From positions 1 to 49,954 of the forward strand of contig JAGVYU010000019.1 of assembly GCA_018303105.1 (NCBI GenBank): 49,954 nucleotides of DNA, given 5' to 3'. Numbering within the stretch: the stretch's first letter is position 1; every line of letters starts with the position of its first letter. Under the pieces are notes generated by a model. It was not told the DNA's origin, did no database searches, and was given only the letters and a program-made list of their open reading frames with translations. The stretch comes from Candidatus Woesearchaeota archaeon. GTDB lineage: Archaea; Nanobdellota; Nanobdellia; Woesearchaeales; JAGVYU01. A program made the translations under genes and the position numbers. Shown here piece after piece: positions 2,485 to 45,149 of the stretch.

Positions 2485-2579
2485 GGGCCCATAGTCTAGT
2501 GGTTATGTGGCAAAACCATACCGCTGATGACATCACATTCACACTGTGAAGGTCGAGGGTTCGAACCCCTCTGGGCCCA
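2485..2579 (+). tRNA. tRNA-Val(CAC) with a 22-nt non-canonical intron in the D-loop (2505-2526)
   Basis: Acceptor stem GGGCCCA/TGGGCCC. Anticodon arm TCACA-TTCACAC-TGTGA. T-arm GAGGG-TTCGAAC-CCCTC. A BHB can be drawn with central helix GTGG (2499-2502) / CCGC (2521-2524), bulges TT|A and TG|A, and intron hairpin TGTGG/CCATA. Splicing restores GTCTAGTGGTTATGAC. No CCA is encoded. Confidence 0.85.
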
Positions 2580-8735: not shown

Positions 8736-8819
8736 CGCCGCGACCCGGATTTGAACCGGGATATCCTTGCGGAAAGCGGCTCTCAAGGCCGCCGCAATAC
8801 CAGATTATGCGATCGCGGC
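8736..8819 (-). tRNA. tRNA-Ser(UGA), intron-less
   Basis: Acceptor stem GCCGCGA/TCGCGGC with discriminator G. Anticodon arm GCGGC-CTTGAGA-GCCGC. Long variable arm (TCC-GCAA-GGA). T-arm CCCGG-TTCAAAT-CCGGG. Confidence 0.9.
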
Positions 8820-40103: not shown

Positions 40104-40184
40104 AGAAGCTAACTGAAAGTAGATTGCATCCTTGGCGTGAAGGAAGAAATTGAGAAGACGATAAAGTTATTCTCACGCGATTAG
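40104..40184 (+). pseudogene. remnant copy of the NUDIX gene 3' end
   Basis: 40122-40175 matches 38762-38816 at about 44 of 54 positions by eye. It translates to …EAN*K*DCILGVKEEIEKTIKLFSRD*, compared with AEEVKKYDCILGVKEEVKKTITLFFT* in the intact gene. Confidence 0.6.
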
Positions 40185-40898
40185 TTTTTGTTCAATGGGA
40201 AGCGAGAGTTGGTAGGGAGCAAGCGCAACTTCTGGGACATTTGTATAATTAGTAATAATCAATTGGGAAAGTGTGCGGAGTGGTCTTTCAGGATGGATCT
40301 CAGCAATCCCCATCAATACAGAGAGCGCGGTGACACACCCAATTCCAAAATTCATGGCGGGGTGAGGATTCATGAATACTTCAGACGCTATTCCTGCAAT
40401 ACAACCCGTCATAGTCGCAAGGCCCAGATATATTGGGCCGAAAACCGGCTCAAGAAGTATGGAGAGCACTGAATCATGTTCGTCTGGATCAAGAGGGTCA
40501 ACGGTGCCTTTGTGCCGTCTCCGCAGGATATCGAATGATCGATACATGCGTCCCAGATATCTTGGTAGTACAAGCTTCTCTACGAATTTAATTTCGCTTA
40601 TTTGTTTCGTTGTGAAATGATCCGAAGCATGAAAAACAGACCAACGAGTCCCGTTGCACGTCCTCTCGATATCCGTCACATAGCTGTATACTCTCTGCAG
40701 GAGATCTTGGTAGTCTTGCGCAATCTCCCGGATCTCTCCTGAAGCGTATTCGACCGACCATCCTGCGCAGATTTCCTCAATCTGCTCTGCGTAATGTATC
40801 TTATCCGTTTCGGTTCTCATTTTTTTTCTGTAATCCTCCAATTCATCTACCCTTGAGAAGTCTGTGTGAAATCGTGCGATTGTTTCTAGCGATGCCAT
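40173..40898 (-). CDS. hypothetical membrane protein
   Basis: The start is moved to ATG 40898 (MASLETI…), 18 nt after tttttaaatcaa. The C-terminal half has hydrophobic segments. Confidence 0.5.
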   Translation of the reverse strand: MASLETIARFHTDFSRVDELEDYRKKMRTETDKIHYAEQIEEICAGWSVEYASGEIREIAQDYQDLLQRVYSYVTDIERTCNGTRWSVFHASDHFTTKQISEIKFVEKLVLPRYLGRMYRSFDILRRRHKGTVDPLDPDEHDSVLSILLEPVFGPIYLGLATMTGCIAGIASEVFMNPHPAMNFGIGCVTALSVLMGIAEIHPERPLRTLSQLIITNYTNVPEVALAPYQLSLPIEQKLIA

Positions 40899-41011
40899 GT
40901 TTAACCTAAGTCTGCGTTGATTTAAAAATACCAACTATGCTCAGTTTCTCCTTGGGATACATATATCCTCACCATAACCTTTATATAGTTTATAATGTTT
41001 ATAACATTTAT

Positions 41012-41598: not shown

Positions 41599-42252
41599 TC
41601 ACATCAGCAGTTCCTCTAATACCGGTTTCTCAACAGACCCATCTTGTGGGAAAGCGTCATTCAAAAATTCTTCAACTTCACGAGATAAAGGAGTTCCCCC
41701 ATGATCTTCACCAAATCCCCCATCTCTGTCTAAATGAAGATGGGTTATATCCAGGCAAGGTTCAAAGTACCTTCTTACAAATGGATATGTTCTTGTGTCA
41801 ATAAAGTCAAAATAAAAATGAACTGCTTTAATGTCCGAATCACTTTCCTTAAAATGTTTTGTGACCTCTCTGCTGTTCGTTACTGCTACTCTGCCCGTGT
41901 AATCTTCAACATAAAACCCTCCACCTTCAGAAACGCTTCCCTTCACCCTTGTTATTCTACAACTGGAACCAAATAAACCGAAAGCATTGCGCACTTCCCA
42001 AGGGGGACCAAAAGAGCGCATAAATGAATTAACAATCCCTCTTGTTTCATTTTCAACCACGGTTTGATAATTCTCCACGACATCTGCAACAGTATTAAAC
42101 TCATAAACTCTAAAACCATTCAGTTGTCTCTTTACGTAACCTAAAAAACGAGAAGGCCTGCCATGATAACCATTTAACCTCATCATTTCCTCAGGGCCGT
42201 TCACGCATGCTTCGATATACTCTCTTCTGTATTCCTCGGTTATGTCTCTCAT
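41599..42252 (-). CDS. hypothetical protein
   Basis: 217-aa ORF. A TATA (gattaaaatac on the minus strand) lies 24-34 nt upstream. Confidence 0.5.
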   Translation of the reverse strand: MRDITEEYRREYIEACVNGPEEMMRLNGYHGRPSRFLGYVKRQLNGFRVYEFNTVADVVENYQTVVENETRGIVNSFMRSFGPPWEVRNAFGLFGSSCRITRVKGSVSEGGGFYVEDYTGRVAVTNSREVTKHFKESDSDIKAVHFYFDFIDTRTYPFVRRYFEPCLDITHLHLDRDGGFGEDHGGTPLSREVEEFLNDAFPQDGSVEKPVLEELLM

Positions 42253-43099: not shown

Positions 43100-43277
43100 T
43101 GCCCCCGCCGGGATTTGAACCCGGGTCAAAGCCTCTCTCCACTGGGAGCTTGAGCGCGAAGCGCGAAACTCCCGAATTTTGGTCAAGCTTTTGCGAACGC
43201 AAAAGATTGTGCGAGAGGGCTTTATGATTGTTCCCGTTGGAGATGCAATCCCCAATGCCGGACTACACTACAGGGGC
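43100..43277 (-). tRNA. tRNA-Glu(CUC) with two introns: D-loop (43231-43256, 26 nt) and canonical 37/38 (43135-43211, 77 nt)
   Basis: Acceptor stem GCCCCTG/CGGGGGC. D region GTGTAGTCCGGC|CAATCAT is typical of archaeal tRNA-Glu. Anticodon arm AAGCC-CTCTCG|A-GGCTT. T-arm CCGGG-TTCAAAT-CCCGG. Both introns fit a BHB. For the D-loop intron, TCCG pairs with CGGG, with bulges GC|A and AA|C. For the 37/38 intron, CTCT pairs with GGAG, with bulges CG|C and AG|A. Confidence 0.8.
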
Positions 43278-43291
43278 ATTTTTGAATTTGA

Positions 43292-43675
43292 TTATGCCGT
43301 TCTTTTTAAAGGTGATTGATATCCCGGATCGAGGCGTTCAATCTCCACATCCACATGCCTGCCACTTGGAGCATGCGCTTCAATAATGATAGTGTGAAGG
43401 TCAACCTCTGTTTTCAAATGCGATGGCAGCATATGCGCCTGCACGGGGTGTGTTTCTGTGTGGAACGGAAATAATCCTTCGATCCTCTGGGAACTAAAGA
43501 AAATTCCTCCCGTGAGATTGTCTAATCCCGTTCTTGATGTTGCGACGACAAACCGCGGCTTCCCGTTGTCATATTGCACAGTATACGGGCCGACAGGCGC
43601 GTGCATCGCTCGCATGTACGCGATAAATCGGTCCGTTGCTTCGTCTGATGTCATGGGCATTGTTCTCACCTTCAT
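43292..43675 (-). CDS. hypothetical protein located between two tRNA genes
   Basis: The tracked ORF start at 43717 lies inside tRNA-Met. I moved it to MKVRTMPMTSDE… (43675, or alternatively 43660). Confidence 0.4.
   Translation of the reverse strand: MKVRTMPMTSDEATDRFIAYMRAMHAPVGPYTVQYDNGKPRFVVATSRTGLDNLTGGIFFSSQRIEGLFPFHTETHPVQAHMLPSHLKTEVDLHTIIIEAHAPSGRHVDVEIERLDPGYQSPLKRTA
43303..43310 (-). promoter_or_regulatory. TATA box for tRNA-Glu (inside the 3' end of the upstream ORF)
   Basis: The minus strand reads TTTAAAAA 26 nt upstream of the tRNA 5' end. Confidence 0.45.
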
Positions 43676-43684
43676 TAGTGTGAA

Positions 43685-43836
43685 TGCCGGAGGGGTGATT
43701 TGAACTCCCGACCTCATGATTATGAGTCATGCGCTCTAGATTTCCCGATTGGGGGCTTGACCGATGGTCAACCCCCGAATTTTTGGTTGAGCTTTTTTGC
43801 TCGCCAAAAAAGATCACCAGGCTGAGCTACTCCGGC
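43685..43836 (-). tRNA. tRNA with CAU anticodon (elongator Met, or Ile2 if modified) carrying a 74-78-nt D-loop intron (about 43738-43815)
   Basis: Acceptor stem GCCGGAG/CTCCGGC. D-stem GCTC…GAGC. Anticodon arm CATGA-CTCATAA-TCATG. T-arm GGGAG-TTCAAAT-CACCC has one A-A mismatch. It is not initiator-like. The 3' intron junction is ambiguous by about 4 nt. Confidence 0.75.
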
Positions 43837-43862
43837 GCGATCCTTTGCAGATTGCGAGGGCT

Positions 43863-43870
43863 TTTATAAA
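43863..43870 (-). promoter_or_regulatory. TATA box for tRNA-Met
   Basis: TTTATAAA lies 27 nt upstream of the tRNA 5' end. Confidence 0.45.
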
Positions 43871-43970
43871 GGTTTTTATAGCGCAACGGGGATCGAAAAC
43901 ACTATTGTAGTAACTGTATAGTAGTGTCAAAAAGGAAAGGTTTATATATGGGTCGTAAATGCTTGAACGT

Positions 43971-45149
43971 ATGGCTAAATCTCGTCACAAATCACCTAAA
44001 TGTGAAGGGAGATTCTCAGAGCTCCGCACAGCACTTTTTCAGGTTGCTGATGATGTCAAAGACTTTGAAGAGGATCCACTATGGTCTGTAAGAAATCGTC
44101 GTGGGCTTGAGAAATTCAGGGAAATCATGGAAGCCGGAGATTATCTTCCTCCATCTCAGTACGACCGCAGAGACCCATATTTTGGCAATATGCGCGACAC
44201 TTTGCGGGGAGACCCCTTAGTGGGAAATCAAGCTAACCACGCATTAAGTCTCGCACCGTTAATTTTTGAAGCACTTCGTAGTAGCCTGAAAATGGATGTA
44301 GAGCGCGCGAGGAGCATGGTCCAGGAGATCGATGTGGGTACACTTGAGCTTGAGCTTGGAATTATTGAAGCTTCGGAAATTACACGAGCAAATTTAGATC
44401 TTCTCAGTCGACTCAACGCTGGAGAGTTGAGGGATATTCTCGGCATGATTGCCGAAAGGGACTGGACGATTACTGCGAACTCGGTCGAGACAGCGGTTAT
44501 CGATGACTATGCACAGTTGTATGTAACTCATCCAAAATTATTGGATGCACTGCGCCTTTTTCATAAGGGAGTGTATCGCCTGGATAAAGAGCTGGGTATT
44601 GACATGGCAAATGTCGTGTTGCCAAGGACGGTTCCCCTTCCAAACGATCATAAGGACAGAAAAAACGGTACTCATTTGTGTGATCTCAAGGGATATGTAC
44701 TCCGCGCTGAATTCGGTCCAGGCATGAACACGGAAGGCACATTGGTAGCCTCAGCGCCATACAGGATTGAGGTGTATAAGGAAGATCGAGAAGCCAGTGG
44801 GCATGGTAATTATATCCCCGTTTTTGGAATGAGTTTTTTCATCAGGCATCCTGACATTATGGTGGTTGCTCAAATTCAAGATATCCGCGGGGCCAGAGTG
44901 CCGGAATGCACAACGCTTGGCTTGGCAGCACTCACGATCGCTGAGAGACTTGGAAGTGTTATGGGATTTAAGCAAATCGAGACATATAGCCGCCACAATC
45001 ATCCTTTGCTTTTGTTGTATCCTGGAGATGAAGAGAGAATGCATCCCATTATTAAAATGAATTTTGAGGAACCAGCCCATATTTTAAAATGGGAACCGCT
45101 TCAGGATAGGGAAAAGGGACCAATTCTAGGTTATAGGAAGCGATTGTAA
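43971..45149 (+). CDS. hypothetical protein
   Basis: Long ORF. I prefer ATG 43971 (MAKSRHK…), 22-30 nt after gtttatatat. Confidence 0.5.
   Translation: MAKSRHKSPKCEGRFSELRTALFQVADDVKDFEEDPLWSVRNRRGLEKFREIMEAGDYLPPSQYDRRDPYFGNMRDTLRGDPLVGNQANHALSLAPLIFEALRSSLKMDVERARSMVQEIDVGTLELELGIIEASEITRANLDLLSRLNAGELRDILGMIAERDWTITANSVETAVIDDYAQLYVTHPKLLDALRLFHKGVYRLDKELGIDMANVVLPRTVPLPNDHKDRKNGTHLCDLKGYVLRAEFGPGMNTEGTLVASAPYRIEVYKEDREASGHGNYIPVFGMSFFIRHPDIMVVAQIQDIRGARVPECTTLGLAALTIAERLGSVMGFKQIETYSRHNHPLLLLYPGDEERMHPIIKMNFEEPAHILKWEPLQDREKGPILGYRKRL

Follow-up and report, generated by a model that had tools for sequence, protein, structure and literature searches.

The DNA analysed here (the window) is a stretch of 49,954 nucleotides from a Candidatus Woesearchaeota archaeon (GenBank assembly GCA_018303105.1, contig JAGVYU010000019.1), in which a scan for a T-arm plus acceptor pairing detected four tRNA genes, those for tRNA-Val, tRNA-Ser, tRNA-Glu and a tRNA with a CAU anticodon that corresponds to elongator Met, or possibly to Ile2, and is called tRNA-Met below. 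The tRNA-Glu and tRNA-Met genes lie near each other and are both interrupted (Table 1). An earlier note on this DNA had proposed that the former contains two introns, in the D-loop and at position 37/38, that the latter contains a single D-loop intron of about 78 nt, and that the 37/38 intron and the tRNA-Met intron share one modular architecture, which would imply intron transposition. When the unspliced genes were submitted to ARAGORN neither of them was reported, with the intron option the tRNA-Glu gene was called tRNA-Leu, and both genes fell below the threshold for the Rfam tRNA model. Once the proposed introns had been cut in silico, ARAGORN recognized clean cloverleaves of tRNA-Glu(ctc), of 75 nt, and of tRNA-Met(cat), which bears out the presence of two intron-bearing tRNA genes at these coordinates. 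The tRNA-Val gene, called 'tRNA-???' by ARAGORN, was accepted as tRNA-Val(CAC) after the in-silico removal of its 22-nt D-loop intron; hence ARAGORN and Rfam missed or mis-called three of the four tRNAs of the window.

Table 1. Features of the intron-bearing tRNA genes and of the remaining tRNA genes of the window.
Feature	Position	Strand	Remarks and basis
tRNA-Glu(CUC) gene	43100..43277	-	178 nt, two introns; T-arm/acceptor scan and in-silico splicing
26-nt D-loop intron of tRNA-Glu, ATTGGGGATTGCATCTCCAACGGGAA	43231..43256	-	read from sequence; family membership not demonstrable
77-nt family intron, position 37/38 of tRNA-Glu	43135..43211	-	in-silico splicing and covariance-model matches
Glu intron hairpin 1, CTTTTGC-GTTC-GCAAAAG	43188..43205	-	fold, covariation, RNAalifold
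Glu intron conserved unpaired linker, CTTGACCAAAATTC	43174..43187	-	pattern, alignment, RNAalifold
Glu intron hairpin 2, base GGGAG(TT)/(AAG)CTCCC, inner GCGC-TTC-GCGC stem	43144..43173	-	fold, covariation
Glu intron 3' tail, AGTGGAGAG	43135..43143	-	partner of exon CUCU (central helix of the splice motif); sequence and minimum free energy fold
tRNA gene with CAU anticodon (elongator Met, or possibly Ile2)	43685..43836	-	152 nt, one D-loop intron
Met (CAU tRNA) D-loop family intron, after position 20	43738..43815	-	78 nt by the junction of the earlier note
Met intron hairpin 1, CTTTTTTG-GCGAG-CAAAAAAG	43792..43812	-	covariation, RNAalifold
Met intron conserved linker, CTCAACCAAAAATTC	43777..43791	-	pattern and alignment
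Met intron hairpin 2, GGGGGTTGACC-ATC-GGTCAAGCCCCC	43751..43776	-	fold, covariation
Met intron 3' tail, AATCGGGAAATCT	43738..43750	-	CGGG partner of D-loop CCUG; sequence and fold
TATA-like box TTTATAAAAG preceding the CAU tRNA by about 25-34 nt	43861..43870	-	putative promoter; read from sequence
TATA-like box TTTAAAAA preceding tRNA-Glu by about 27-34 nt	43304..43311	-	putative promoter; read from sequence
tRNA-Val(CAC) gene	2485-2579	+	95 nt; 22-nt D-loop intron at 2505-2526, ATGTGGCAAAACCATACCGCTG
tRNA-Ser gene	8736-8819	-	84 nt; T-arm and acceptor pairing scan

Each strand of the archaeal bulge-helix-bulge (BHB) splice motif comprises 4 nt of helix and then a bulge of 3 nt, and it is cut after the second nucleotide of the bulge. 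At the 37/38 junctions of tRNA-Glu, inspection by hand and folding revealed such a motif, with exon nucleotides C32-U35 (CUCU) paired with GGAG and the bulges CG^C and AG^A. The same arrangement was observed in the D-loops, where UCCG of the tRNA-Glu exon pairs with CGGG (bulges GC^A and AA^C, enclosing an inner hairpin of 8 bp), GUGG of tRNA-Val pairs with CCGC (bulges UU^A and UG^A), and CCUG of the tRNA-Met exon pairs with CGGG (bulges GU^G and AA^A), the last one being present also in the minimum free energy fold. The strict BHB rule places the end of the tRNA-Met intron at 43742 (74 nt), which leaves a D-loop of 13 nt in a product that is still accepted by ARAGORN, whereas a junction at 43738 generates the standard 9-nt D-loop but lacks a canonical bulge; the D-loop location claimed for this intron stood, and its length of about 78 nt became uncertain. 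As for a group I or group II self-splicing origin, the introns are only 77-78 nt long (versus more than 200 nt) and match no Rfam intron family.

In every intron whose junctions were worked out, the 3' tail was found, on reading by hand, to be complementary to the adjoining exon, whichever exon that was. The tail variants are YGGGAA, GGGAAA and GGAGAG, and their exon partners are CCYG or YCCC in the D-loop and T-stem and CUCU in the anticodon loop of tRNA-Glu. Because the tail is the exon-pairing strand, the two D-loop introns of tRNA-Glu and tRNA-Met share CGGGAA, since both pair with the conserved D-loop sequence CCKG. Hence, the common tail that had been noted earlier does exist, but it is better explained by this pairing than by kinship. 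Moreover, in-silico splicing yielded canonical tRNAs in seven relatives (Val, three Ala, Ile, Met and Ser).

These data bear on the possibility that the genes are decaying pseudogenes, disrupted by insertions and left unspliced, which would account for the failure of ARAGORN and Rfam on the unspliced genes and would fit the single A-A mismatch in the T stem of the CAU tRNA as well as the T runs within the insertions. However, the exons are intact and restore canonical cloverleaves, the TATA-like boxes are correctly spaced upstream, the complementarity between tail and exon is kept at every site, and orthologous tRNAs from several species have retained the arrangement; decay is thus a very improbable explanation. 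The assignment of both boxes as putative promoters follows from the known architecture of archaeal promoters.

The intron sequences, hairpin 1, linker and hairpin 2 quoted in the earlier note were exactly as written. The common element comprises an A/U-rich hairpin 1, an unpaired linker of 14-15 nt, GCTYNACCAAAA(A)TTC, and a variable hairpin 2; at the RNA level, the A-rich linker consensus is GCUYNACCAAAA(A)UUC. The ends of the intron pair together and co-vary (AACC/GGTT, GATC/GATC, GAT/ATC). Covariation, formerly proposed for the base of hairpin 2 from the window introns, is now documented for both hairpins on an alignment of 15 copies. Pairing within the two hairpins amounts to 97.6%, both sides have changed in five pairs, and the covariation score reaches 0.225, as compared with 0.074 +/- 0.019 in shuffled alignments (0/500 as high) and at most 0.033 in slid controls. 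RNAalifold independently predicted the same two hairpins and left the linker unpaired. An alternative long hairpin, in which the T run pairs with CCAAAA of the linker and the loop AAGC with GCTT, can form in most copies (92.5% paired), showed no covariation beyond that of shuffles (76/500) and breaks exactly where hairpin 1 varies, and the structure with hairpin 1 and an unpaired linker was preferred.

Not all parts of the element are equally constrained. The loop and upper stem of hairpin 1 are free to vary (GCAAG, AAA, GTTC), and copy L004 has a wholly different, GC-rich stem. Hairpin 2 exists in short forms (GGGGCATAAAGCCCC and GGGGGACAAGCCCCC) and in long forms (GGGGGTTTC-stem-TTC-stem-TCAAGCCCCC), and in the D-loop intron of tRNA-Val from L005, hairpin 1 and the linker are joined straight to the terminal helix and the tail, with no hairpin 2 at all. 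Since hairpin 2 is variable or absent while hairpin 1 and the linker are kept, the latter two constitute the core of the element and hairpin 2 an optional module. The modularity of these introns is therefore real, but the assignment of its parts has to be reversed: hairpin 1 plus linker had been taken for the insert, and it is hairpin 2 that is dispensable.

Neither of the two intron sequences contains C/D boxes (C, RUGAUGA; D, CUGA; kink-turn) or H/ACA boxes, which confirms what had been read from the letters, and no Rfam family matched them at gathering thresholds, at E-values up to 10 or at E-values up to 1. The sub-threshold Rfam matches to mascRNA, Plastid-ycf2 and His_leader correspond to tRNA-like or A/T-rich sequence and were discarded. 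A first covariance model (R1) was built from six copies, and a second one (R2) was run with filters off. The tRNA-Glu and tRNA-Met introns scored 37.1 and 40.8 bits with R1 and 48.2 and 60.1 bits with R2, respectively. R1 retrieved every copy, with scores of 37-94 bits, and in the window it found none besides the two already known, as confirmed by R2.

The distribution of the element outside the window was analysed with the pattern AAAGCTNNACCAAAA(N)TTCGGG in 185,579 species, represented by one genome each (596 Gb), and in metagenome contigs. The species genomes gave 9 matches in 8 loci, all 9 inside tRNA genes of archaeal metagenome-assembled genomes (MAGs), and the metagenomes gave 12 matches, five of which are true copies and seven chance occurrences in coding or GC-rich DNA (L009, L010, L013, L015, L016, L017 and L020). 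Beyond the window, the element is thus known from 13 distinct copies, located on 12 contigs from MAGs and metagenomes of the Woesearchaeota/Nanoarchaeota type. According to in-silico splicing, D-loop copies reside in tRNA-Ala(GGC) (L002a, L014, L019 and L006, the last of which is identical to L012), in 5' fragments of tRNA-Ala(GGC) (L007 and L018), in tRNA-Met(CAU) (L002b), in tRNA-Ile(GAU) (L001) and in a tRNA of unassigned type (L004), and T-loop copies at position 53/54 in tRNA-Ser(UGA) (L003, L005, L008 and L011). When position 37/38 of the window tRNA-Glu is counted, family members are found at three or more positions, and the tRNA species that carry them number at least six. No copy was present in the viral contigs searched, which yielded one chance match in coding DNA.

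Proteins encoded beside the window tRNAs have homologues annotated as Candidatus Woesearchaeota, and the gene order Val/AI-2E transporter/AMP phosphorylase/Ser is the same in the window, L003 and L005, with about 51% protein identity, which places the window in this broad clade. Some of the MAGs bear the title Woesearchaeota or Nanoarchaeota. Four of the loci (L001, L003, L005 and L008) are titled 'uncultured Methanosarcinales archaeon'; their genes, e.g. that for AMP phosphorylase, are 85-100% identical to proteins named as Woesearchaeota or Nanoarchaeota, and the titles are probably wrong.

The similarity between the two long introns of the window is far beyond that expected by chance, with a local alignment score of 36 for the true pair and of 15.0 +/- 2.5 for dinucleotide shuffles, none of which (0/2000) reached it (z about 8), and the two introns are thus paralogous and share one architecture, as had been claimed. 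The linker pattern also occurs in the window beyond chance expectation. On the contrary, the resemblance of the 26-nt D-loop intron of tRNA-Glu to the two long introns is at chance level (263/2000 and 698/2000 shuffles as good or better), so that its description as hairpin 2 plus tail was not sustained, and the similarity of the 22-nt D-loop intron of tRNA-Val to the long introns was not significant. Both short introns were missed by the models even with filters off and were rejected as members of the family. The window tRNA-Val intron occupies the same D-loop position as the family mini-intron in tRNA-Val of L005, and it has no detectable relation to the family.

If the likeness were due to convergence or chance, any two hairpin-bearing BHB introns of A/T-rich archaea should be equally alike. 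The CGGGAA tail is indeed a convergent constraint, imposed by pairing with the conserved D-loop, and the short tRNA-Glu intron resembles the long ones no more than chance allows. Nevertheless, the shuffling result, the fact that a 20-nt linker pattern matched only the tRNA introns of one archaeal clade in the 596 Gb of genomes, and the lack of any such similarity among other same-position introns of relatives (tRNA-Val and tRNA-Ser anticodon-loop introns) mean that convergence is, for practical purposes, refuted.

Close relatives of the window introns were found in other tRNAs of other genomes. The core of the tRNA-Met intron is 97% identical to that of the tRNA-Ile copy in L001, and the 37/38 intron of tRNA-Glu is closest to the T-loop intron of tRNA-Ser in L008 (85% over 55 nt). 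Likewise, the core of the tRNA-Ser T-loop copies in L003, L005 and L011 is 100% identical to that of the tRNA-Ala D-loop copy in L014, and no difference exists between the L011 and L014 copies in the first 54 nt, a stretch that contains the hairpin 2 variant, so that only the exon-matching tail distinguishes them. These near-identical copies in the D-loops of tRNA-Ala, tRNA-Met and tRNA-Ile, the T-loop of tRNA-Ser and the anticodon loop of tRNA-Glu of different genomes strongly reinforce the proposal of intron transposition, as does the presence or absence of the element among orthologous tRNAs. In the tRNA-Ser gene beside that for AMP phosphorylase, the element is present in L003, L005, L008 and L011 and missing from the window, L031 and L033, and the intron sets of the tRNA-Val orthologues are entirely different. 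The family is gained and lost quickly among related genomes.

Where the element is retained, its core is highly conserved. The family introns of L003 and L005 are identical at 62 of 63 positions, only about 20 of which are imposed by the search pattern, as compared with 55% identity at third codon positions of the neighbouring gene and about 60%, with gaps, for a second intron in that tRNA-Ser. Conservation of the core also extends over several genomes of different species, between which the identity of the flanking proteins is no more than 51-85%. This conservation indicates that the core is probably subject to purifying selection or to repeated homogenisation.

The observed sequence family, the covariation of its structure, its compatibility with the splice motif, its distribution and its turnover are best explained if the long introns of the window are genuine archaeal BHB tRNA introns that belong to one dispersed family specific to Woesearchaeota/Nanoarchaeota-type archaea of the DPANN superphylum, an interpretation that we regard as probable. 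The tRNA splicing endonuclease would act on the helix between tail and exon, flanked by two 3-nt bulges; the exons would then be ligated, and the intron would be freed, probably as a circle. The family would have spread to non-homologous sites in the D-loop (around 20/21), the anticodon loop (37/38) and the T-loop (53/54), with a preference for sites (CCYGG) able to pair with the tail, and the near-invariance of the core may reflect a demand of mobility or homogenisation, a demand of splicing, or a function of its own.

Several observations weigh against this interpretation of the window introns as spliced members of a dispersed family. The window copies in tRNA-Glu and tRNA-Met are not each other's closest relatives, and a recent transposition between these two genes within the genome is thus not demonstrated. 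Only two copies are present in about 58 kb of the genome of the window, and about 140 kb of sequence from other Woesearchaeota loci contain no copy; L036, which extends 7.9 kb past the start of the window, contains neither further tRNAs nor copies, and no record was found for the protein encoded at the opposite end of the window. The 3' junction of the tRNA-Met intron is ambiguous by 4 nt, which implies either a D-loop of 13 nt or a relaxed motif. Among the open reading frames (ORFs) scanned in the window there is no gene for a splicing endonuclease (EndA) or a ligase (RtcB), and splicing by these enzymes, circular release and accumulation of the excised intron are, like the route of transposition, what we infer from sequence. 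Runs of 4-6 T are found in the sense strand of hairpin 1 in the window (43803-43808 and 43198-43201) and likewise in all family copies; archaeal RNA polymerase termination signals typically consist of runs of at least 5 T, and the T5-T6 runs would therefore represent potential terminators inside essential genes. Finally, the strong copies were all found by the linker pattern and the weaker ones by linker-weighted models, so that the linker appears invariant in part because of how the copies were ascertained.

The conservation of the core raises a question about whether hairpin 1 and the linker constitute a functional RNA for which the tRNA intron is the vehicle. After excision, such an RNA, probably a stable circle, would bind a protein or pair with a target through ACCAAAAUUCGG, and this role would be compatible with mobility. 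It would explain why the core is conserved in situ far above its neutral neighbours, why hairpin 1 and the linker are kept where hairpin 2 varies or is absent, why there are about 16 sense copies versus one antisense lineage, and why the linker is predicted to be unpaired in all copies. There is also a precedent, since the tRNA-Trp intron of Haloferax and other Euryarchaeota carries a C/D box guide RNA, i.e., a conserved structured RNA within a BHB intron that is released by splicing, as predicted for the present family; nevertheless, the family lacks C, D, C' and D' boxes and a kink-turn, and it inhabits many tRNAs and positions rather than one. On the other hand, no known RNA family or box motif was matched, and the loop of hairpin 1 is not conserved. 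The search of the window for targets complementary to the linker that the earlier note had suggested returned the introns' own opposite strand and two matches with three mismatches, which is about chance level. The same tRNAs lack the element in many related genomes, which indicates that it is not essential, and part of the conservation of the linker is due to ascertainment. A functional RNA is a possibility that we regard as less probable than not.

A stronger version, in which the core itself drives a self-propagating intron, appears unlikely. Here, the excised and probably circular RNA would be recognised through the linker by a host or element-encoded factor, which would direct its reinsertion at CCYGG-type sites, by reverse splicing at the RNA level or by homing in trans at the DNA level, or the RNA would act as a trans-acting small RNA in DPANN cells. 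In either of these cases, the family would be the first among archaeal tRNA introns for which a cis-element serving mobility or function is defined.

Some copies found outside their usual context are relevant to a further alternative, that of a small mobile element acting at the DNA level, either similar to a miniature inverted-repeat transposable element (MITE) or moved in trans by a recombinase or homing endonuclease, which would insert widely, survive in tRNA genes only where its ends happen to form a spliceable BHB, and whose core would be the recognition site of the enzyme. An apparent reverse-complement copy of hairpin 1 and the linker, CAACCTTTTGANAAAAGCTTGACTAAAACC, lies inside a T-loop intron of tRNA-Val(GAC) at two orthologous loci (L003 3146-3203 and L031 8821-8865, on the minus strand of plus-strand tRNA-Val genes; 17-20 bits, E-values of about 0.01-0.02). 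Diverged copies outside tRNA genes are located upstream of a histone-like gene (L014 632-748, minus strand; 20.6 bits), with a hairpin 2 that is not the same and an insertion of about 60 nt in hairpin 1, and in the intergenic region of EF-1alpha and S10 (L034 13867-13935, plus strand; about 16 bits). The termini of the element are short inverted repeats, AACC(TTTT)...(AAAA)GGTT. The family resembles MITEs in being short, structured and multi-copy, with inverted termini of 4-8 bp and possibly both orientations. However, target-site duplications were not seen, the non-tRNA and antisense matches are few (two or three and one lineage, respectively) and weak (E-values of 0.01-0.2), and the overwhelming majority of the copies are sense-oriented, in tRNA genes, exactly at sites that complete a BHB. 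The lack of copies in the viral contigs and the absence of any transposase or endonuclease linked to the window copies likewise speak against such an element.

The two contigs with non-tRNA copies also carry a second short intergenic repeat, GAGGAATTGCTTCGCAATTCA (L034 7523-7621 and L014 at about 605-625), beside hairpin-rich DNA and accompanied in L034 by a duplication of about 35 nt of the 3' end of a gene.

A possible link between the family and a mobility enzyme was observed at the tRNA-Ala(GGC) locus of L007 (486-1500, minus strand). There, a 5' fragment of the tRNA with the family intron is broken right after position 37 (L018 is likewise a 5' fragment) and is followed by a gene (567-1211) for a LAGLIDADG homing endonuclease of 214 amino acids (Pfam E = 8.8e-14) with weak similarity to I-DmoI, the end of which overlaps a complete tRNA-Ala(GGC) (486-580) that lacks the D-loop intron. 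The locus is either a giant endonuclease-bearing 37/38 intron or a mobile-element insertion that duplicated the 5' exon. Archaeal rRNA BHB introns with LAGLIDADG homing endonucleases, e.g. the I-DmoI intron, are mobile at the DNA level. The present introns share with them the BHB type and, at L007, the presence of an I-DmoI-like gene; in contrast, the window introns are non-coding and of 77-78 nt, and no endonuclease gene exists in the window. The L007 locus also resembles the tRNA-Thr locus of Caldiarchaeum, where a mobile element is linked to intron gain and tRNA fragmentation (PMC3293823), and a gain of archaeal tRNA introns at the DNA level has been put forward (PMC4090602, PMC3293823). 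The antisense and non-tRNA copies and the L007 endonuclease locus favour some DNA-level mobility, and they do not settle the route. Taken together, a DNA element as the full explanation seems doubtful, and a dispersed family of BHB tRNA introns continues to be the preferred one.

Non-canonical BHB introns, and several of them per tRNA gene, are well known in Crenarchaeota and Nanoarchaeota. The family described here is a new case of a known kind, that of transposed archaeal BHB tRNA introns, and its distinguishing trait is a core conserved across diverged species; no prior description of it was found in the literature searched, nor does Rfam contain such a family. The closest precedent is that of the Thermoproteales, in which, according to a review, introns that closely resemble each other but lie at different positions of unrelated tRNAs were read as the result of large-scale intron transposition by an unknown mechanism (PMC4090602, citing Fujishima et al. 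2010, Mol Biol Evol 27:2233). In the same source, tRNAs with several introns are frequent, introns are gained and lost rapidly, and the permissible targets are believed to be set by the splice motif, all of which is shared with the present system. Unlike the Thermoproteales introns, those reported here belong to DPANN Woesearchaeota/Nanoarchaeota-type hosts and not to Crenarchaeota, have a three-part organization with a core conserved between species and a long invariant unpaired linker, and may include antisense and non-tRNA copies. An increased disruption of tRNA genes, together with EndA variants carrying an extra loop, has been reported for DPANN archaea including Woesearchaeota (Kaneta et al. 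2018, PMC5829648). The superphylum, the D- and T-loop positions and the relaxed BHB motifs agree with those of the DPANN non-canonical introns and broad-specificity endonucleases described there and by Fujishima et al. 2011 (PMC3239211); these studies count disrupted tRNA genes and characterise the enzymes, and no conserved intron sequence family is seen in the parts of them that were consulted.

The arrival of archaeal tRNA introns at new positions has lacked an explanation ever since it was described in Thermoproteales, and reviews give the mechanism as unknown (PMC4090602). The present family provides a second, independent system with a clear anatomy, i.e., a conserved core, a swappable hairpin, a site-adapting tail and a CCYGG target preference, and it also offers presence/absence polymorphisms between close relatives and possible inverted and non-tRNA copies. 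Reverse splicing at the RNA level, homing or transposition at the DNA level and gene conversion would thereby become testable by comparison of Woesearchaeota MAGs and in vitro. In addition, because standard tRNA finders miss or mis-call such genes, a covariance model of the family would be of practical use and would improve tRNA annotation and estimates of completeness for DPANN genomes.

With respect to the neighbouring genes, an ORF of 141 codons (43292-43717, minus strand) overlaps the 3' end of the CAU tRNA and probably starts at an ATG near 43657 (121 amino acids). No Pfam match was obtained for its product or for the neighbouring proteins of 396 (43959-45149), 217 (41599-42252) and 253 (40173-40934) amino acids. 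The homologues of the 396-amino acid protein, which is encoded beside the CAU tRNA, are 43-47% identical proteins labelled Woesearchaeota whose genes do not adjoin Met or Glu tRNAs; at these loci the tRNAs are intron-less and the family copy is absent.

The tRNA-Val(GAC) and tRNA-Ser(UGA) orthologues of close Woesearchaeota (L003, L005 and L031-L034, with the tRNA-Val gene beside the AI-2E transporter gene) contain one to three introns each, and from one genome to the next almost nothing in the positions and sequences of these introns is the same. A further intron type that recurs (TGYGG...ATGCAAGT) was observed at T-loop position 60/61 in L008 and in L032 (11486-12010). Finally, spliced tRNA-Val(GAC) from L005 (1200-1332) and from its orthologues in L003 and L031-L034 carries C at position 33 (anticodon loop UCGACAC), where U is almost universal in tRNAs.

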